From the NCBI GenBank assembly GCA_040387495.1, contig JAZKDQ010000014.1, positions 9,752-73,751 on the forward strand: a stretch of 64,000 nt of DNA. The letters run 5' to 3'. The DNA is from Pseudomonadota bacterium. Its GTDB lineage: Bacteria; Pseudomonadota; Alphaproteobacteria; Paracaedibacterales; CAIOTO01. This document shows, one piece after another, positions 1,455 to 52,734 of the stretch; position 1 is the first letter of the stretch, and every line of letters starts with the position of its first letter. The translations under genes and the position numbers were made by a program. The notes beneath the pieces were generated by a model, which saw nothing but the letters and a program-made list of their open reading frames with translations, did no database searches and was not told the origin of the DNA.

Positions 1455-3116
<1,662 letters not shown>

Positions 3117-3134
3117 TTAATAGTTTATTCAAAC

Positions 3135-3162
3135 TGTCATTCCCGCCTACGCGAGAATGACA
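3135..3162. repeat. Palindromic REP/RPE-like hairpin between groES and groEL
   Basis: tgtcattcccgc-ctac-gcgagaatgaca inverted repeat. Confidence 0.65.
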
Positions 3163-3181
3163 AGGGGGAGGAAACTTAAGA

Positions 3182-3472
3182 TTAAGCAGCCAAAATTCCA
3201 ACGATATCAGACTCTTTCATGACAAGATAATCTTCGCCATCGATCTTGATTTCTGTACCTGACCATTTGCCAAACAATACGCGGTCGCCTTTTTTAACTT
3301 CCAAAGCAATTACGTTTCCGGCTTCATTACGTGCGCCAGTTCCAACAGCGACGATTTCGCCTTCCATTGGTTTTTCTTTTGCGGTTTCAGGAATGATAAT
3401 TCCGCTAGCTGTTTTTGCTTCTGACTCAATGCGTTTTACAACAACACGGTCGTGGAGTGGTCTGAAGTTCAT
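3182..3472 (-). CDS. groS: Co-chaperonin GroES
   Basis: [24 protein letters not shown] motifs. Confidence 0.99.
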
Positions 3473-43732: not shown

Positions 43733-44007
43733 GTATCCCCCCGTGTGAGGGGATAATAGAAAAAAGGAATTATTAATTTGGCTCTTATGCAGATTAAGTG
43801 GGTAACCTTTATCAGACCTAAAAATGTATCATCCTCGGGTTTGATGCAAGGATCTATATAGGTTTAAAGGCAAGCACTAAGTGTGACTTGACAAGCTAGA
43901 TGCCACTTCGATGATAGATATTATCGTGTCAAGCGATAATACACTGGGAGCAAGGATTGTACATACCCACTCGTTTCCTACAAGAGCCATTGATTTTTTA
44001 GGTATAG

Positions 44008-44697
44008 TTATTCAGCATCATTTTCTAGGTACAATTTTTTTTGTTCTTTTTCACGTTTCCTGCGGTCATTTTCTAAAATCCGCTGATCAGCCTTTTTAAT
44101 CAAGATTTTTATAAACTGTTCGTATGCAAATTTCTGACCAATATCTTCTTTGTAATCGTCAAAACGGGAGCAAACCTCATTTATTTCGTTTTTGTACGTT
44201 TCTGAATCAATTTTTTGATCTGTTACTAAATACGTCCGTCGTTTCTTCTTAATTTTTTCAATAGTTTCGGTGGTCCAAAGGTTATTAACAGTAATTTTTG
44301 CTAGGTCCCCCTTAATGCTTTTTATTAACCAGTTTGCAAAGAAATGTGGACCACATTGTAGATGATAGTGGTAGTAAAATTTGCATTTCCTCTTGCTAGC
44401 CAGGATTGCAGATTCTTCTGTCTCATCTCTGTGTGATTGTGTGGCTAATATTTCATAGGATCGATGAATGTCGTTATATTCTTCTTTAACTTTCGCACGT
44501 TTATACTGCTTAGTATCAAAAATTATTACTGAACGAGCAGGATTAAATCTTGAACCTTGGACTTGCTCCTCATATGCACTCATCGTCCGTTTAAAAGGCA
44601 ATTGGACTTGCTCCCCACCCGACTCCCCATCCGAACCCATCGCCAGGTTAAAAGGAAAAAGCGCCAAAAAAGCTATAATTTTAATATTTTTAATCAT
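44008..44697 (-). CDS. Secreted protein, FPFNLAM-leader family member 3
   Basis: MIKNIKIIAFLALFPFNLAMGSD leader; Lys/Arg-rich body. Confidence 0.8.
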   Translation of the reverse strand: MIKNIKIIAFLALFPFNLAMGSDGESGGEQVQLPFKRTMSAYEEQVQGSRFNPARSVIIFDTKQYKRAKVKEEYNDIHRSYEILATQSHRDETEESAILASKRKCKFYYHYHLQCGPHFFANWLIKSIKGDLAKITVNNLWTTETIEKIKKKRRTYLVTDQKIDSETYKNEINEVCSRFDDYKEDIGQKFAYEQFIKILIKKADQRILENDRRKREKEQKKLYLENDAE

Positions 44698-44801
44698 TAT
44701 TTATATCCTGATATATTTTGATTATTGGGTGAATGAACTATATCCCCCCGGTTTGGGGGGATTACAGATAGAATTGAATTGGGGAAAAAGTGTGTTTTAA
44801 T

Positions 44802-45602
44802 TTATTTTACATTATTTGTGGATAATTCAGTTAAAGTATTTGCAGCTTGAGTTATTTCAAAGGCAATGATTAAAGGCCTAATATATTTATCATATTTAAC
44901 ATCAAAAGTGAGAAGCAAGCTTTGAAGATTCCTAAGATGCAGACATGGAGTTTCATTATAATATTCATACAACGAAAATATTACATGATTCCTAAATTCT
45001 AGCCTAATATCATCGATAGGACTTTCTGAATTAATTTCGCGCTTTATTAATTCGTCTGCAATTTGCAGGGAATTTCTTGCAGGATCATAGTGCCATAAAA
45101 AATTTTTCCAGGTCCTTTTACCTGAATTTGTGGATAATTCAGTTGAAGCATTTGCGACTTGAGTTATTTCATAGGCAATGATTAAAGGCCTAATATATTT
45201 ATCATATTTAACATCAAAAGTGAGAAGCAAGCTTTGAAGATTCCTAAGATGCAGACATGGAGTTTCATTATAATATTCATACAACGAAAATATTACATGA
45301 TTCCTAAATTCTAGCCTAATATCATCGATAGGACTTTCTGAATTAATTTCGCGCTTTATTAATTCGTCTGCAATTTGCAGGGAATTTCTTGCAGGATCAT
45401 AGTGCCATAAAAAATTTTTCCAGGTCCTTCCTCCTGAATCATTCAACATGTCTACTGCTGTTATTGGGAGCATAGGCAGCATAACAGTTTCAGATGGAGC
45501 AGAATTAAATCTTGAATCTTGGTCTTGTTGTCCATCCGAACTCATCGCCAGATTAAATGGAAAAAGTGCTAAAATTGCAATAATTTTAATATTCTTATTC
45601 AT
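44802..45602 (-). CDS. Secreted protein, FPFNLAM-leader family member 2, with a 104-aa internal duplication
   Basis: MNKNIKIIAILALFPFNLAMSSD leader (start reassigned to 45602). Confidence 0.8.
   Translation of the reverse strand: MNKNIKIIAILALFPFNLAMSSDGQQDQDSRFNSAPSETVMLPMLPITAVDMLNDSGGRTWKNFLWHYDPARNSLQIADELIKREINSESPIDDIRLEFRNHVIFSLYEYYNETPCLHLRNLQSLLLTFDVKYDKYIRPLIIAYEITQVANASTELSTNSGKRTWKNFLWHYDPARNSLQIADELIKREINSESPIDDIRLEFRNHVIFSLYEYYNETPCLHLRNLQSLLLTFDVKYDKYIRPLIIAFEITQAANTLTELSTNNVK
44814..45427. repeat. 312-bp near-perfect tandem direct repeat
   Basis: ccaggtcc at 45108 and 45420; the units are identical except near one end. Confidence 0.95.
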
Positions 45603-45680
45603 TGTTAACATCCTGATATACATATAATTACACAAAAAGATAATTTTATTTTTAAATAAAATTATCTTGATTTGTACGTA

Positions 45681-45703
45681 CATAACTAATTTCAACCTGT
45701 CAA
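45681..45703 (-). promoter_or_regulatory. Repeated promoter cassette (also at 46600-46622, partial at 49668-49683)
   Basis: Identical TTGACAGGTTGAAATTAGTTATG on the minus strand. Confidence 0.75.
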
Positions 45704-45789
45704 CGAAAGATTTAAGTATTTTCAACCTCAAAGAGAAAATCATTTGAATCTGTGCTGCACATTAGTCGATGTTTAGGAGAGAAGAATTT

Positions 45790-46509
45790 CTAATAAGTAA
45801 ATCTATGTGCTTTAGCTTTTTTAGCTTTTATTTTCTTAATTTTTTTAGCCTTTAATTTAGCTTTAACTTTTGCCTTTGCTTTTTTATTAGCATTATTAAT
45901 GGAAACTTTATGCATATCGCAGGCAGTGAAAAGAATTCTATTAATTTGGCTCTCATAAGTCGCTGGATCTTTTTTATTTTTTTTCATCAATGCATGTAGA
46001 TAACTTTTGCATACATGCTTAAATTTTTCAGGATTGAGTTTGATTGCATTAATTCTTACTTCTATTAAAAATTCATTCAATGATAATAAGTTTACAGCAA
46101 GATGTTCTATGTAATAAACCCCTCGATTACTAAAAATACCACTAAGTAGAGCTTCTTCTCCATTTGATAACTTGCTTAGTTTACCAATATTCCTTTTGTC
46201 AAATTCTAATTCTTTGTATTTTTCAAGACTATCACGTCGTACAGGGGACTTAGGTTCTGGCTCTGCAAAATGCACAGACTTTTTAGGCTTTGACTCTGAA
46301 ATTGTGTGTTTTTCTGGTTCTTGTGTTAACTCTGGCCTCACAATGACATCATTGCGTTCAACTATACTACCACGTCGTTCACGTTTAAATTCAGAGTAAG
46401 ATGGCCTGCACATCATATTAGGTTCTAGATTTACATCCCTATCTGCGCTCATGGCCAGGTTAAACGGAAAAAGAAAGCAGGAAGTTATCGAAATTATTTT
46501 TTTATTCAT
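45790..46509 (-). CDS. Secreted protein, FPFNLAM-leader family member 1, with RVxF-like motif and polybasic tail
   Basis: MNKKIISITSCFLFPFNLAMSAD; KKSVHF; KKAKAKVKAKLKAKKIKKIKAKK. Confidence 0.8.
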   Translation of the reverse strand: MNKKIISITSCFLFPFNLAMSADRDVNLEPNMMCRPSYSEFKRERRGSIVERNDVIVRPELTQEPEKHTISESKPKKSVHFAEPEPKSPVRRDSLEKYKELEFDKRNIGKLSKLSNGEEALLSGIFSNRGVYYIEHLAVNLLSLNEFLIEVRINAIKLNPEKFKHVCKSYLHALMKKNKKDPATYESQINRILFTACDMHKVSINNANKKAKAKVKAKLKAKKIKKIKAKKAKAHRFTY

Positions 46510-46787
46510 TATTTACATCCATATATACATATAATTATACAAAATTAAAAAAATTACTTTGTTTATTTTTAAGTAAAATTGTTTTAACGTGCAAAAATAC
46601 ATAACTAATTTCAACCTGTCAATGAAAAATAGAGATTACTTCAACCTATTGGTGAAAATATAACGTGTTTTTTTATGATTTAATGAATTGTGGATTTGCC
46701 GTTGAAATTTTATGAACCCTGAGATTACGGCATAACAACTTCTGGGGATAACACTTAAATTCAGTCGTTGTTACTTCTACTTATTTT

Positions 46788-47814
46788 TTACTTCCTTACT
46801 CCACCAGTAAATGAAAAGTCAGCAGCAGGTATTTTTCCCTGCGTAATTTCCATTTTCTTAGGCAACGTATATATAGGCTTATGGCTCTCTGTTGGATCAG
46901 CATGAGCAGAATTACTTTCCTGATTCGCTTGATGTTACACGTGTGTTAGACATTGATGCTTTTTTAAGTATGTTAGCATAAGGGTTAGGTTTACTTTCTG
47001 TAGACGAAACGGGCAGTTTGACATAAGAAGAGGCTTTTAAACTTTTCCGTGAATTATTTATCATATCTAACAAAATTGGTTCTGCATTTTTTTGTGAATT
47101 ATTTCCTTTAATGTTATTAACAACAAGCTGTCGTATTGTTTTTTCTTCTGGAGCTATTTCTAAAGTGCCGAAGTTCTGAGTGACACTTAAGCTGAGACTC
47201 GTCTTCGCTTTTGCTTCTGTCGTATCTGCTTTTTTTAGTAGAGAACCCGCTTTAATAGCATCCAAGAAAGATGGTCGCATTGTTGTTTCCGCACTTTTTA
47301 CAGGCTGTTGTGTTGTCTTTTTTTCAGGGACTATTTTTTCTGAGGAAACGAGTTTCTGAGTGAAACTTAAGCTAAGATTCGCATTCGCTGTCGTTTCTGC
47401 AATATCAGCTTTTTTTAACTGGGGACGCACGCTAATATCATTCAAGAATGACGGTCGAGCTCTTGAGTTAGATGTCGTGCTAGCTCTCTCTGTCGCTTTG
47501 GTGGATGCAAAACTATCTCTATCTGTTGCTCCACTGTCTGTAGATGCAAAACTGTATCTGCCATCATGGGGGGTGCTAAGTAAATCATGCGATGGAGTAA
47601 TTTGATTTTCTGTTTGAGCGTTTACTTCTGTGTCATCTGGTTCTTGATAGTCTAAATAAATGATTTTTTCTTGGGTAGAGGTGTGACTGATTTTTGCTGG
47701 GGCATAGGAATTACCTATTCCTAGTTTTTTTCTCATGTTATCTAGTGAATAAGCATTATTTGATAAAAAACATAAACTGATACTAAATATTGATAATTGT
47801 AGTATGATTTTCAT
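46788..47814 (-). CDS. Secreted multi-WH2-like protein, frameshifted near the C-terminus
   Basis: RPSFLDAIKAGSLLKKA and RPSFLNDISVRPQLKKA. The ORF stops at 46912, but a shifted frame to 46788 matches the paralog's C-terminus. Confidence 0.75.
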
Positions 47815-47847
47815 TTTAAAACTCACTTTCATTAGGTTTAAGCATTA

Positions 47848-47965
47848 TTAAAATCTATATGCGACACCAATCATTATTCCATGATCAGAATACGACGCAT
47901 TATCAAACCCAGAAGTTTGTGATTTATTACTATTTATTGAAATATTTTTACCTGGATTATATATA
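47848..47965 (-). pseudogene. Duplicated 3' fragment of the outer-membrane beta-barrel gene
   Basis: YNPGKNI...SGFDNASYSDHGIMIGVAYRF versus YNPGKKI...SGYANASYSDHRLMIGVAYKF. Confidence 0.88.
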
Positions 47966-48131
47966 TTCACTGCGGAATATGATTTGATCACATGAACCAA
48001 AGGATAGCGTAAATGCACCTTATTCTTGTTTTTCAATGATTTAACACTTCACGCGTTTGTCTTTTGAATTTTATAAATCCCCGGAGCGCGGCATAACCAC
48101 ATCCGGGGGTAATACTTGATTTCAGTTGCTG

Positions 48132-48794
48132 TTATTTTTTACTATCATTTGGTGTTACAGGTGCGGAAATAAGATTTTTACTAACCAGCCTTTGTCCACC
48201 AACGAATCGAATTTCTTCATCGTGTAGTTTTTGATTAATTGCTTCCGTTTTGATGGACGGTTCTTTTGTAAGTTTATGTCTAGCTGTTATATTGGTGCCA
48301 GAGGCAGAATCATCCTCCACACTGCTACTTGACGTTATAGACGTGTTGTTATTATGTAAATCATCGTAACTATAAGTATAAGAAGAAGAAGGCCGTTTTT
48401 TTAAACTCATACGTGCCATTTGCAAGGCAGTTGGTTCTACCTTCTTTTCAAGAATTTGCGCTGTGTTCTCTTTGGAAACTATTTTTAAAGAAGCAAGCTG
48501 CTGAGTAATACTTAAGCTTGAGTCCACCACCGAAACTGGCAATTGTTCGGATTGAGATGAGACAGACGCGATGGATGTTCTATCTGTTACACCGGATGAA
48601 AAACTGTCTCTTTCGCTTTCCTCGTTTTTTGGCGGAGCGGGACGTGTTGGTGGGGGGGGTTGTCTTTGTGTGACGACAAGTTTTGGCGGACTTCCCCTTA
48701 ATTCATCTCTAGCAGCACTACCCATTGAACAAGCATTTGTTGCGATAAAACTTACACAAACGCTAAGCGTTGATAATTGTAATATATTTTTCAT
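48132..48794 (-). CDS. Secreted proline-rich, single WH2-like protein (paralog of the 47814 gene)
   Basis: MKNILQLS leader, QPPPPTRPAPP, TALQMARMSLKKR, shared SLS.TQ motif. Confidence 0.75.
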   Translation of the reverse strand: MKNILQLSTLSVCVSFIATNACSMGSAARDELRGSPPKLVVTQRQPPPPTRPAPPKNEESERDSFSSGVTDRTSIASVSSQSEQLPVSVVDSSLSITQQLASLKIVSKENTAQILEKKVEPTALQMARMSLKKRPSSSYTYSYDDLHNNNTSITSSSSVEDDSASGTNITARHKLTKEPSIKTEAINQKLHDEEIRFVGGQRLVSKNLISAPVTPNDSKK

Positions 48795-48825
48795 TTTAGA
48801 TTTACTTCCTTTAGATTTAATATTT

Positions 48826-49572
48826 TTAAAATTTATACGCAACGCCAATCATCAGACGATGATCAGAGTACGATGCATTGGCATATCCAGAAATATGTCC
48901 ATCGTCAGTAGGTATGAAAATCTTTTTACCTGGGTTATAACTATATTCGCCGCGTACTAAAATACGGCCAAGTGCTTTTTCGTAACCAAAAGCTGGCGTA
49001 AAGACAATATTTGTTTTACGAACAGACTCAGAAACCGATACGTTCCTATCAGGTCTTACACTGTTGGTTCCATTGTATGTTACCGTAGCCTGATCTCGGC
49101 TAACCTCAAATCCTGGCTTAATATAAATCAAATTATTACCAAAAACGTAACCGAACCGCGGCGCAACACCAAAAGCAATTCCGCGTTTATTTTTTATTTT
49201 TGCCTCATAATGTTGCTCGGAATGTATAGGATCTGCATTATTTAATAAATTAATATGTCGATTAGCAAAATCACCTAAAATTGATAATTCACCCCCAACA
49301 TAAAAGTTATTCAAATTTTTGCCATAACCTGCATATAAGCCCAAAAGTAATCCATTTGATGTGTTATTTGTGTTAAAATGCATCCCTATACTTTTTAGGA
49401 AACCTGCAGTATTCATGAGATCATTAGTTGTTTCATTCACTTCTGTTTTTGTTTTACTTCTGACACCTCCCGCGCCTGCACCCACATAGAAACCATTAAA
49501 CCCCGTTGATGTCGCGTTTGCTGTAATTGAGACCGCAGCCATAACGGTGGACACTAATAATAACTTTTTCAT
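48826..49572 (-). CDS. Outer-membrane beta-barrel protein (Omp25/surface-antigen-like)
   Basis: Signal peptide, FNGFYVGAGAG, amphipathic strands, terminal VAYKF. Confidence 0.9.
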   Translation of the reverse strand: MKKLLLVSTVMAAVSITANATSTGFNGFYVGAGAGGVRSKTKTEVNETTNDLMNTAGFLKSIGMHFNTNNTSNGLLLGLYAGYGKNLNNFYVGGELSILGDFANRHINLLNNADPIHSEQHYEAKIKNKRGIAFGVAPRFGYVFGNNLIYIKPGFEVSRDQATVTYNGTNSVRPDRNVSVSESVRKTNIVFTPAFGYEKALGRILVRGEYSYNPGKKIFIPTDDGHISGYANASYSDHRLMIGVAYKF

Positions 49573-49884
49573 AATAAATACCTTTCATATATTTATGTTA
49601 AAATATATACATTTGTTTAAATTAATGTATAAACTTCTTTGTTTGATAAAAATTTGGTTTATTATATTAATTTCAACCTGTCATTTAATACAAAATACTT
49701 TTCATGCATTTAAAACATGAATTAATCACATGTAAAGTCAAACTTTCATATTAACTACTTTACATATACAACAAACCTTCCTCTCAATGTCAATAACACT
49801 AGGCTTATATTTCGGTTGAAATAATTTGGATTTATCGCATCTGTAAATATTAAGTAAAATGGCTCTAGATAATTTTGGGATACG

Positions 49885-50319
49885 TTATAATGAGCTCTTG
49901 ATAATAAGCTCTCGACTGTGCTCGTCGATTGTATTGATGTGGATATCAATTCGGTTTTTGGGTAGGTACGGCCCCATGCGCTCTGGCCATTCGATAAAAC
50001 AAAGGTGTGTGTGCAGCGCTTCGATCAGGCCAAGTTCCAAGCATTCATCCGGAGACGTCAATCGATATAAATCACAATGCCAAAGTGTGCCTTTAGGTAA
50101 GGTGTATTCCTGCACCAATGTGAATGTTGGACTGGGCACAATTAAATCAAGATCGCCCGCAAAGGCTTGGATCACCCGCCGGATAAACGTAGTTTTACCA
50201 GCCCCAAGGTCACCCCATAAAGCAACAATCCCAGTAGGTGGAAGCGTTTTTGCAAAGCTGTCTGCGAAGGCAAGCAATTCTGGTTCGGTCAATTGGTGCG
50301 TCATAGTACTATTCGTCAT
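49885..50319 (-). CDS. tsaE: tRNA t6A biosynthesis ATPase TsaE
   Basis: GDLGAGKTT, VPSPTFTLVQEY, HCDLYRL, IEWPE. Confidence 0.97.
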   Translation of the reverse strand: MTNSTMTHQLTEPELLAFADSFAKTLPPTGIVALWGDLGAGKTTFIRRVIQAFAGDLDLIVPSPTFTLVQEYTLPKGTLWHCDLYRLTSPDECLELGLIEALHTHLCFIEWPERMGPYLPKNRIDIHINTIDEHSRELIIKSSL

Positions 50320-50322
50320 GAA

Positions 50323-50649
50323 TCAAAACCCAAAACAATACGCTAAAATGAAAAACCCAATGGAAATCACAAAGCTTTTCGCAAGGGACGACGTGTTCCA
50401 CATAATCACAGCAGCAAGACTAAGCGTCATTACACAAATAGCAAATATGGTAACGTAGTGCGACGACGTTTTTGGAATTTCTCGAAAAGCCACCGTATAG
50501 ATAACCTCACCTGTAATAAGACAAATGGTGTAATCCAAAAACTTATTCAGCTTTGGATAATCATTTAACTTACTGATGTGTTTAATAAATGCAGGGGACG
50601 CCCTTAAAAGAAAAGATGTCAGGCCAGCCGTTGCTATCATTTTCCACAT
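50323..50649 (-). CDS. AzlD-like small membrane protein
   Basis: Overlaps the azlC-like gene end; T..LR..P motif; 3-4 TMs. Confidence 0.65.
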   Translation of the reverse strand: MWKMIATAGLTSFLLRASPAFIKHISKLNDYPKLNKFLDYTICLITGEVIYTVAFREIPKTSSHYVTIFAICVMTLSLAAVIMWNTSSLAKSFVISIGFFILAYCFGF

Positions 50650-51329
50650 AATGCATCCTTTATTCGGTCTTCTATATGCACACATACAAAGGCGATCAAA
50701 AACCATGCTAAAATAAGTAATTGTTTACTAATATACATTTCTAAAAGAGGTGTCGCAAGAATGCCTAATAACGATATTGCAAGGATCATTGGCTCGGCTT
50801 TGCGCTTTACAATCAAACAAATAAAGTGCGTTGGCAACACGATATGCGCAAGCCCGTTTAAAAATTTTCGGCAATCCAGCACAGCATCCCATGCCATGTG
50901 GCCAACAATCGTAAATACAATTGCCACGATATAAGCAGCAATGACGACGCCCATATAAAAGCTCCATGGGTCTTTTACATTTTTTTGCGTCGAACAAACC
51001 AAATAAGCACTACTGCACATAAAATACAACGCGGGGACTTTTAATCGCTTGCCCTGATTCCAAAGAGGGATCGCCATGGCTGACATTAATACAAATTTAA
51101 AATTGAGAACGAATATATTTAAAGCAAGAACCCATAACGATAAGTCTTTATTTTCCATGAGAAACACTTGCGCAGGGCCAGCAAAAACGGTCGCCGTCAA
51201 AGTAGCTGATTCTAACAACGTTAAGCCATGGGAATTTGCGAGTAATCCTAGGGATGAAAATAGCAATGTAAATGCCACACAAATAGGGATTGATCCATAA
51301 AGGCCATCTGTGAAGCTTTTTTTATCCAT
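50637..51329 (-). CDS. AzlC-family branched-chain amino acid exporter permease
   Basis: F..GL..SIPI, VFAGPAQ, LNFKFVLMS. Confidence 0.85.
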   Translation of the reverse strand: MDKKSFTDGLYGSIPICVAFTLLFSSLGLLANSHGLTLLESATLTATVFAGPAQVFLMENKDLSLWVLALNIFVLNFKFVLMSAMAIPLWNQGKRLKVPALYFMCSSAYLVCSTQKNVKDPWSFYMGVVIAAYIVAIVFTIVGHMAWDAVLDCRKFLNGLAHIVLPTHFICLIVKRKAEPMILAISLLGILATPLLEMYISKQLLILAWFLIAFVCVHIEDRIKDALCGK

Positions 51330-51450
51330 TATGGATTCTCATGCAGGGTTATTATGATATTATATAGTGCAACTATTGTTTAAAAAATAGCAAGAATGAA
51401 TCGATTTTTTGGATGATTTTGTAAAATCATCCTACATTATTTATCGATTT

Positions 51451-52431
51451 CTAACTCAATGATATTATAAGTTCCTGAATTGCAGAAGCAGCTAGTATGC
51501 GATACTCGCTCATTGCACCATAAGATTGTAAACGAGTGATATAACTTTGCAATTTAGAAATAATAAACACTTTTTCTTGGGGAGATGTTCGAACAGAATA
51601 TCGTTTGGAAATACCCTCCGCATCAGGCAGAAGCTTTATCTTAATTTTTTTTAATTTATTGCGGTTTTCTGACTTCAAAACTGCTTCAATTGGTTTAGGT
51701 ACTTCGTCCAAGTATTGAGCTTCAATCTCACCAAAAAACATAGCTGGATAATCAAGACGGGTAGCATGATCTGGATCTACTGCATAATGTTCTACACTGT
51801 CTAACATAAACATGGCATCTCTGTCATTTTCACCCATAGCTCTTACATATATACCATAATTGGGGTTGCAGCCATCGTCATCCGGGTATCCTTCGACCAT
51901 GCCTAACAAAAATTCTATAATATAGAAAAGGCCTCCGCCATGAGAAATATCTTGAATTTCTTGGGGTTCTATGTCTAATTTCTTATCATAAGAGCGTCTC
52001 GGTAATGATTTTTTTGTTTCCTGTATCTTATCCCCATTTTCCGCACTAACTGACCGCTTTTTAAGTTCTTTCACCTTCATACTTTTTAATACCGTTACAA
52101 TGTCAGATGCAATTTCTTCTATTTCTTTTTCTTCTTGAAATTTTTGCGCGATTTTACGAATATCACTGCGTTTGTACTTTTCTGACACTGCAAATATTTT
52201 TTCACGAGCCATCTCCTTTAGGAGGGGCCTATCACCATCAGAAGCAGCCTTATCAATATCTTCAAAAATTTTTTCACTATTGTTTAAAAAATTCTCAATT
52301 TTTTCAGCTCTTGTGTAGCCTGGCAAAATAGACCTATCAAGTTCCAAATCACAATCTAAGTGGCTTTCGCTCGCAAAAGTTGACACTGATATCATAGAAA
52401 TAAATATTATTGATTTAAACATGCTTTTCAT
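51451..52431 (-). CDS. Secreted protein, possible ADP-ribosyltransferase-fold effector
   Basis: Signal peptide; SHGGG..YI..FL.G..EGY, GIYV, DYPA...GEIEA.YL, IEAVL. Confidence 0.5.
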   Translation of the reverse strand: MKSMFKSIIFISMISVSTFASESHLDCDLELDRSILPGYTRAEKIENFLNNSEKIFEDIDKAASDGDRPLLKEMAREKIFAVSEKYKRSDIRKIAQKFQEEKEIEEIASDIVTVLKSMKVKELKKRSVSAENGDKIQETKKSLPRRSYDKKLDIEPQEIQDISHGGGLFYIIEFLLGMVEGYPDDDGCNPNYGIYVRAMGENDRDAMFMLDSVEHYAVDPDHATRLDYPAMFFGEIEAQYLDEVPKPIEAVLKSENRNKLKKIKIKLLPDAEGISKRYSVRTSPQEKVFIISKLQSYITRLQSYGAMSEYRILAASAIQELIISLS

Positions 52432-52734
52432 TGAATTAAACCTTATGTTTTATATATTAAAAATGAATTAATAAATTATATATAATCACATAAATCTAAA
52501 ATTTCAATACCCATTAAAAAAATATGTTGTAAAAAACATCTTGTTCGCGTTACTATAAACTAGGTTCGGATGATAAAAAACTAAATTGGGTTTAACTTAC
52601 CCGTTATCATTCTTGAGAATCCTGTAATAGGATCACCTTACATAGCCATTAAAAATAAAAATATTAATTTTTAAAATAGCTAAGAATACCCCGTAAATAA
52701 TAGTGTAAAACCTTAACCTAAGCGAATTGTTATA

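Follow-up and report, generated by a model that had tools for sequence, protein, structure and literature searches.

Paralogous barrel–partner gene cassettes with marginal WH2 likeness in an intracellular alphaproteobacterial symbiont: a possible link to host actin

Bacterial actin effectors of the WH2 type are an already known kind. As it occurs in N-WASP, WAVE, WIP and Spire, the WH2 motif spans ~17 residues and reads [FL]L-x-x-I, then five residues, then LKK[AVT]. In proteins of the WASP/RickA type it is followed by a C helix and a tryptophan-containing acidic tail (together VCA; the last two parts are called CA below). Tandem-WH2 nucleators have at least three WH2 repeats with short linkers, or repeats together with a dimerisation domain. 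VopL/F and TARP leave the bacterium by type III secretion, Sca2 is an autotransporter passenger, BimA is a trimeric autotransporter, and RickA is not known to have a Sec signal. RickA and Sca2 are covered in parts of PMC11077975. Here we describe, in a 64,000-nucleotide (nt) stretch of DNA from contig JAZKDQ010000014.1 (the window), two neighboring gene cassettes in which a small outer-membrane barrel gene, or what is left of it, precedes the gene of an exported partner protein with a marginal likeness to WH2 proteins. That these cassettes act on host actin is a reasonable yet unproven lead.

All features of both cassettes lie on the minus strand, from position 49572 to about 46700 in the numbering of the window, and are read in the order barrel gene, partner A, hairpin, 3′ remnant of a second barrel gene, partner B, and a decayed copy of the hairpin. 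The barrel gene of cassette 1 (48826..49572) encodes a small outer-membrane beta-barrel protein (OMP) of 248 residues with a signal-like N-terminus, ending in ...GVAYKF. After a gap of 31 nt between its stop codon and the next ATG (48794) comes partner A (48132..48794; 220 residues), which has a signal-like N-terminus, the poly-proline stretch QPPPPTRPAPP (48630..48659), an RDSFSS motif, a weak TALQMARMSLKK motif, and an intact family C-terminal tail (...EIRFVGGQRLV...). The hairpin 3′ of partner A (48079..48108; −22.6 kcal/mol, z = −3.3, with 2 of 200 shuffles folding equally well) is probably a terminator-like stem–loop; a simple terminator scan reported neither hairpin, and this one has no T-run behind it. 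Of the barrel gene of cassette 2, nothing is left but ~38 terminal codons with the stop (47848..47970), and the spacing from this remnant to the ATG of partner B (47814) is 33 nt. Partner B (46912..47814; 300 residues) has a signal-like N-terminus, the motifs RYSFAS and RDSFAS, and an internal duplication of ~60 residues, and is truncated before the family tail. This layout, down to the gap of ~30 nt, the copy of the barrel 3′ end, and the R.SF.S motifs in both partners, had been described in a first-pass annotation of the window and is borne out by the open reading frames (ORFs) and alignments.

The two units can be aligned as DNA from the 3′ end of the barrel gene to beyond the hairpin with a mean column identity of 70%, a span that takes in the ribosome-binding region, the signal peptide, several internal blocks, the C-terminal region, and the hairpin. 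The second hairpin copy (46717..46747) aligns with the first, as had been proposed, although it folds no better than shuffled sequence (z = −1.0, 26 of 200 shuffles equal). At the protein level the partners are distant paralogs (A versus B identity ~31%–34% in alignments). The barrel remnant is 61% identical to residues 211–248 of the cassette 1 barrel and 78% identical (29 of 37 residues) to the C-terminus of an intact barrel from a metagenome locus (L012), so the duplication of the cassette is old. The first-pass claim of a tandem duplication thus holds as far as the homology of the units goes, with the additions that the event is old and that both units are damaged: The window holds two old, partly decayed paralogous cassettes, one of A type and one of B type.

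The adjacency of barrel and partner genes is retained outside this genome. In the L012 locus, 32 nt separate the end of a full 248-residue barrel gene from the partner gene, and the same distance is seen in a second metagenome contig (L011), which begins within its barrel gene. A barrel gene is therefore directly upstream in both related metagenome loci with context, and likewise in both cassettes of the window; these are few cases, and the pairing had been singled out beforehand for a co-occurrence check.

Relatives of the partners are few. An exhaustive search among 1.84 billion representatives found 12 clusters at E ≤ 0.001, of which the window's proteins account for two, and a search with B in a set of 5.8 billion proteins found four proteins at E ≤ 0.01, one being the query, leaving three metagenome relatives. 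Single-sequence searches with the partners found no relative in 60 related genomes, and a 15-member family profile matched none of the 61 other genomes of the order. The partner pair is a true, narrow, lineage-restricted family, and both this family and the internal duplication of B stand far above chance expectation. Its members share a signal peptide (MK.I.QLS...), an optional poly-proline run, RDSF/RDSL motifs, the blocks [RS]PSFLD[AS]IK..QLK.., LD.I...R..LK, and PNPYANILKKTS, and a C-terminal tail (VPEADFSYVGxARIVKNKK) whose glycine and arginine are the sole near-invariant residues. The A type, with poly-proline, comprises P0009, P0012, P0011, and P0014, and the B type P0002–4, P0006–8, P0010, and P0013. 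In P0009 the signal peptide, poly-proline, and WH2-like motif follow one another in that order.

Partners A and B are exported, disordered proteins. The AlphaFold2 model of B is disordered (pLDDT 52.9), with helices only at residues 2–31 and 248–257. Apart from a weak WH2 match in B, neither partner has a Pfam domain; a phmmer search of B against PDB sequences gave no match at E ≤ 10, and a protein-atlas search gave no usable feature match, the structure rows having TM values of 0.14–0.21. Two other interpretations of the partners were tried and set aside. A lipoprotein is not indicated, the cysteine before the cleavage region being unconserved in the family. A PEP-CTERM or GlyGly-CTERM sorting signal was judged by eye, against the signals as generally known, and the hydrophobic stretch of ~10 residues in the tail is too short for a membrane helix.

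The OMP upstream is a small OmpA/Ail-like barrel according to its model. AlphaFold2, run with an alignment of five sequences, returned an all-beta barrel (pLDDT 78.5, pTM 0.71), which Foldseek matches best to the transmembrane domain of OmpA (E = 2e-8), NspA, Ail, and OmpX. With these proteins it shares the signal-like N-terminus, a predicted antiparallel barrel of approximately eight strands, and an aromatic C-terminal residue (...AYKF). It differs from them in having longer strands and loops and no sequence match in Pfam (E ≤ 1) or, searched as a profile, in the PDB (E ≤ 1); NCBIfam gives weak N-terminal matches only. Coupling to a downstream partner gene is likewise a feature of the window's OMP that is not known for OmpA, OmpX, Ail, or NspA. 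Three close paralogs of the barrel (45%–53% identity) and weaker ones occur elsewhere in the genome, none with a partner-like gene downstream, and no such gene follows the barrel in the six (L013–L018) of 13 public-genome loci of barrel relatives that were inspected. Those loci come from metagenome-assembled genomes (MAGs) labeled Alphaproteobacteria and Candidatus Paracaedibacteraceae. One of the genome's own paralogs (G000:C3:133391-135123, positions 1501–3233 of locus L005) is followed by a signal-bearing protein of 245 residues made of KSKAGDAIDAGKEKSKELY-type repeats, another pairing of a barrel with an exported repeat protein, whose sequence is related to neither partner A nor partner B.

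What might tie the partners to actin is a short motif. Partner B has two WH2-like motifs, RPSFLNDISVRPQLKKA (47407..47457), with the canonical spacing [FL]LxxIxxxxxLKK[AV], and RPSFLDAIKAGSLLKKA (47227..47277). They stand exactly 60 residues apart, a distance explained by the internal duplication in which they lie (27 of 53 residues identical, E = 3e-13). Two weaker motifs follow: ILLDMINNSRKSLKA (47032..47076), a conserved family block that contains the only helix predicted beyond the signal peptide, and YANILKKA (46957..46980), which is part of the family block PNPYANILKK[TA]S. All four had been noted in the first-pass annotation. Motif 1 occupies a position homologous to that of the motif in P0002–P0012, and nine family rows share the canonical spacing. 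The WH2 consensus of a short amphipathic helix segment (hydrophobic residues at i, i + 1, and i + 4, five residues, LKK[VTA]), compared with the N-WASP repeats, is followed by FLNDISVRPQLKKA and FLDAIKAGSLLKKA in B, and motif 2 has 7 of 14 positions identical to an N-WASP WH2.

Several searches place B closest to WH2 within its own genome. Against the Pfam WH2 family (PF02205; gathering cut-off 23.1 bits), motif 2 scores 16.6 bits per protein (E = 0.0064), and a scan of all six frames of the 1.66-Mb genome yields no other match at E ≤ 10, motif 2 scoring 18.7 bits there (E = 0.0037); at the same threshold, eight of 14 control genomes also give matches, none of them above the cut-off. P0009 (16.5 bits, E = 0.0066) and P0006 (15.6 bits, E = 0.013) match at the homologous position, WH2 being their sole Pfam match at E ≤ 5. 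When 9,675 six-frame ORFs are scored with a hidden Markov model (HMM) of 14 distinct WH2 motifs from the order, B comes out on top (E = 0.0069), the next ORF of this genome having E = 4.4. A strict WH2 pattern, composed after the motif had been seen, occurs twice in the 9,675 ORFs, both times in B, versus 0.31 occurrences expected from composition. In a comparison of the family profile with an alignment of the order's VCA proteins, hhalign reported a single hit, in which the family motif is in register with the WH2 column. A weak WH2 match in a same-genus genome (G003, E = 0.015) was discarded; the 67-residue frame that contains it has a stop, and the site has no related gene.

Other results weigh against counting the partners as WH2 proteins. 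No member reaches the 23.1-bit cut-off; only three of 15 match at E ≤ 1 and 12 do not, and motif 1 of B has no Pfam WH2 match. The hhalign hit has a P-value of 0.063 and a probability <1%. The family profile finds nothing at E ≤ 10, and no WH2 chain, among 177,635 PDB sequences, while the profile of the order's VCA proteins, used as a positive control in the same test, finds N-WASP at E = 2e-14. In the reciprocal direction, an HMM of the family motif fails to favor the order's WH2s over decoys (the best ranks 20th, E = 11, among 9,901 ORFs), as does an HMM of the second block (that of ILLDMINNSRKSLKA). AlphaFold2 predicts a helix at neither WH2-like motif of B, which counts for little, since motifs of this kind take up their fold when they bind. 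Motif content also varies, P0011, P0014, and P0015 having no WH2-like motif at that position. Since the members differ in this way, the signal peptide and tail, rather than the motif, form the conserved core of the family. Aligned over its full length, partner A shares 47% identity with P0009 and has a gap where P0009 carries SALLDAIKAHSLLKKT; it has no canonical motif, and the single WH2-like motif once ascribed to it is of the weaker TALQMARMSLKK type. Partner B in turn has no barrel gene of its own and, as encoded, no C-terminal tail. On balance we grade the WH2 likeness of B, a matter of short sequence motifs, as marginal: The first-pass WH2 assignment stands in that motif 2 is the sole WH2-HMM match of the genome and falls short in its sub-threshold score, the empty PDB search, and the failed reciprocal test.

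With these points counted, the reading that we favor, at somewhat less than even confidence, is that the partner is exported by Sec, engages host actin monomers together with profilin, SH3, or EVH1 proteins without the help of Arp2/3, and is somehow coupled to the barrel. The cassette may, that is, act on host actin. The barrel gene and the partner gene would probably be transcribed together, in this order. The partner would pass through Sec as an intrinsically disordered chain built from short linear motifs, arranged as signal peptide, optional poly-proline, serine-rich motifs of RDSF type, WH2-like motif, two LKK-type blocks, and C-terminal tail. The WH2-like motifs could bind actin monomers, and the poly-proline could bind profilin, SH3, or EVH1 proteins; the motif lies, as in WH2 proteins, in a disordered region, and in A-type members it comes after poly-proline. 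We infer that the partner most likely serves to manipulate host actin on the bacterial surface or close to it, acting as a monomer-binding, nucleating, elongating, or sequestering factor. Since the C and A regions are absent, Arp2/3 activation by the partner is not expected. The original proposal of an actin-nucleation system thus keeps the adjacency, the export, the disorder, and the intracellular setting in its favor, and is held back by the unproven WH2 identity and the unsupported role of the barrel.

One point against this reading concerns export: A Sec signal alone takes a protein to the periplasm only. Two exits might be considered: The C-terminal tail could hold the partner to the barrel or the outer membrane, or the genome's single secretin system could carry it out. 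An anchoring role of the tail is a guess. The first-pass annotation saw the barrel as anchor or translocon; we find nothing in support, the fold being of the small OmpA/Ail-like kind, and we know of no export role for barrels of the OmpA, OmpX, or Ail fold. A prediction of the complex between the cassette 1 barrel (residues 22–248) and partner A (residues 24–220), made with alignments, scored 0.00 and gives no verdict either way. The more elaborate version, in which the small barrel encoded upstream holds the CA-less partner by its tail on the surface, where the partner promotes actin assembly in a protist host without Arp2/3, appears to us improbable as a whole.

The strongest competitor, which we regard as a serious possibility of clearly lower standing than even, is that the partner belongs to the envelope or cell surface as a disordered protein specific to this lineage, cooperating with the barrel and unconnected with actin. 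It might, for instance, be a coat protein resembling an adhesin or antigen, or a tether in the periplasm that its C-terminal tail keeps in place. The WH2 likeness would then be a product of chance in low-complexity sequence rich in lysine, leucine, and serine. Such a protein would accord with a signal peptide and tail that are better conserved than the motif, with the 12 members that have no WH2 match, and with a profile that neither finds a WH2 chain in the PDB nor passes the reciprocal test; that the partner is so closely and consistently paired with an OmpA/Ail-like barrel also suits an envelope role. Chance is harder to reconcile with the retention of canonical spacing, hydrophobic positions, and LK positions in nine of 10 motif-bearing rows, and with the absence of any other WH2-HMM match in the genome. 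RDSF motifs and runs of poly-proline, moreover, typify host-directed linear motifs, and true secreted WH2 proteins are abundant in the order. If the motifs do not bind actin, what remains is an orphan envelope pair of local interest only.

Unlikely in our judgment, and overlapping both the actin and the envelope interpretation, is that the cassettes have no current function in this genome and are decaying within a variable, low-GC island of orphan genes, B and its barrel gene being pseudogenes. The damage is real enough. The second barrel gene is reduced to its last ~38 codons, the second hairpin has decayed, and A has no counterpart of the motif found in its closest relative. The stop of B (46914..46912) is followed by the family tail one base out of frame (remnant ...IPAADFSFTGGVRK, 46791..46934), in a frame that is open from 46934 to 46791. 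Scored with an HMM of the tail, this remnant stands out from 34,877 six-frame ORFs (E = 0.0043), no other ORF of the genome falling below E = 0.6; on partner A the HMM gives E = 3e-12, A having been part of the training set. A 151-nt contig from a second run of the same study covers 46786–46936 without a difference, so the frame break is probably real, at low depth; read mapping of the region gave short contigs only, and the full span was seen only in the probable source run. Programmed frameshifting at the stop was also considered and dropped, no slippery site being visible by eye in 46934..46912. The region after tsaE differs in all three same-genus genomes examined and contains the cassette in none, and the GC content is 32%–36% at the cassettes versus about 39%–43% on the flanks. 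Against decay, B retains an open frame of 300 codons, both motifs, and a ribosome-binding region; cassette 1 is intact in its barrel, its partner with tail, and its strong hairpin; and the paralogs are old, the remnant being closer to the L012 barrel (78%) than to its neighbor (61%), so both have been kept for long. In this genome, then, the intact cassette is without the canonical motif and the motif-bearing one is without barrel gene and tail.

That the partners activate Arp2/3, as nucleation-promoting factors of the WASP/RickA type do, is nearly excluded by their sequence: Signal-bearing proteins of that type are common in the order and poly-proline precedes the WH2-like motif in A-type members, but A and B have neither tryptophan nor the C helix and acidic tail (the absence of an acidic, tryptophan-containing tail had been noted before), tryptophan occurs among the 15 aligned members only in P0013, which has no acidic tail, and the family profile does not match the N-WASP VCA.

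Set beside canonical WH2 motifs, most family members carry Pro/Ser/Arg in the linker in place of Gly-Lys/Gln. Like the Arp2/3-independent tandem-WH2 nucleators Spire, Cordon-bleu, and VopL/VopF of Vibrio, and like the bacterial actin assemblers Sca2 of Rickettsia and TARP of Chlamydia, B has several WH2-type motifs in a disordered chain, relatives with poly-proline, and no CA region. It differs in that only two of its motifs are good ones, at a distance of 60 residues, the other two being weak, and in having no dimerisation or formin-like domain and no folded domain predicted; most relatives have one motif. Its Sec signal also sets it apart from the export routes of VopL/F, TARP, and Sca2. With RickA, BimA, and ActA it would share the setting of an intracellular bacterium and the proposed role as a surface actin assembly factor; RickA has WH2 and CA, and the partner has no CA, and in place of the BimA autotransporter there is a separate small barrel gene before the partner. 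A type Va autotransporter joins a passenger and a 12-strand beta domain in one polypeptide; here the genes are separate, 31–33 nt apart, and the barrel model is most like the eight-strand OmpA/Ail fold rather than a 12-strand autotransporter domain. In two-partner secretion, a 16-strand transporter of the Omp85 type carries POTRA domains and the protein that it exports has a TPS domain; the OMP here has 248 residues, a small-barrel fold, and no Pfam match, and the partner matches no Pfam domain beyond the weak WH2 match.

The order to which this genome belongs contains clear WH2 proteins. Matches above the Pfam cut-off occur in 10 of 62 genomes of the order versus none of the 14 controls (genomes with such loci include G026, G021, G046, G041, G011, G033, and G034). 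In 11 of the 12 loci inspected the protein has a signal-like N-terminus, as judged by eye, mostly with upstream poly-proline. Seven (L027, L029, L030, L032, L033, L035, and L036) are complete WASP-like VCA loci, with a signal-like N-terminus, a cysteine-containing N-terminal part, poly-proline, one to four WH2 repeats, a C helix, and an acidic tryptophan tail, and match N-WASP at E = 2e-14; the other five (L028, L031, L034, L037, and L038) have no acidic tryptophan tail. These frequencies mark WH2 proteins with a Sec signal as a theme of the order. The window's partners resemble the VCA proteins in having a signal-like N-terminus, poly-proline, and then WH2-type motifs, and presumably face the same problem of reaching a host compartment. 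The differences are plain: The VCA proteins have WH2 matches above the cut-off, a C helix, and an acidic tryptophan tail, none adjoins a barrel gene in the inspected loci, and they have no detectable homology to the partner family (0 of 61 genomes).

The source organism is an obligate intracellular alphaproteobacterial symbiont whose nearest named relatives are MAGs labeled Candidatus Paracaedibacteraceae. Its genome encodes three to four TLC ATP/ADP translocase genes, for which none of the 14 control genomes gives a match, one secretin, and no VirB4. This combination fits obligate intracellular life in a eukaryote, the translocases being the mark of an energy parasite living inside cells. The TLC genes lie at G000:C8:53033-56164 and C14:94182-99439, one of them with an internal TAA and one a 72-residue fragment. 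DNA of the cassette locus occurs in watershed and freshwater metagenome runs, with no RNA run among those listed.

If the motifs do bind actin, the cassette would be a small, tractable case of host-actin mimicry in protist endosymbionts, with an unexplained export route (a Sec signal and a coupled small barrel) and no Arp2/3-activating region. If the barrel also held it on the surface, the design would be distinct from the autotransporter (Sca2, BimA), signal-less (RickA), and type III (VopL/F, TARP) ones. Together with the order's common signal-peptide VCA proteins, it suggests that actin manipulation may be widespread in these little-studied symbionts. In main texts, we found no literature linking WH2 with Paracaedibacter and no report of WASP-like VCA proteins or actin manipulation in Holosporales or Paracaedibacter-type symbionts; nor is WH2 mentioned among the matches listed in literature naming Holosporales-type taxa. 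A 2017 genomics paper on Acanthamoeba endosymbionts contains none of the terms "actin," "Wiskott," "WASP," "Arp2," and "proline-rich" in its main text. In sections of a 2025 review of the Holosporales, neither "Arp2" nor "WASP" occurs, and actin appears there only in connection with Holospora proteins and in a citation on actin-based trafficking of Holospora obtusa. WH2 is mentioned in two papers on Cardinium symbionts.

The surroundings of the cassettes are themselves rich in exported orphans. The stretch after tsaE (window 49885–50319; compared with L052, L053, and L054) looks like a variable spot for exported proteins; the genes that follow tsaE differ among the three same-genus genomes and mostly bear signal peptides, and in one of these genomes tpiA follows directly. 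Next to cassette 2, three minus-strand ORFs at 44008–46509 (45790..46509, 44802..45743, and 44008..44697) share a common signal-like N-terminus ending in ...FPFNLAMS/G and belong to no Pfam or NCBIfam family, the middle one containing a near-identical internal duplication of ~100 residues (SGGRTWKNFLWHYDPARNSL...). On the other side, at 51451–52431 of the minus strand, lies an orphan of 326 residues with a signal-like N-terminus and no family match. The whole of 44000–52500 forms a low-GC (32%–39%) island of such exported orphans.

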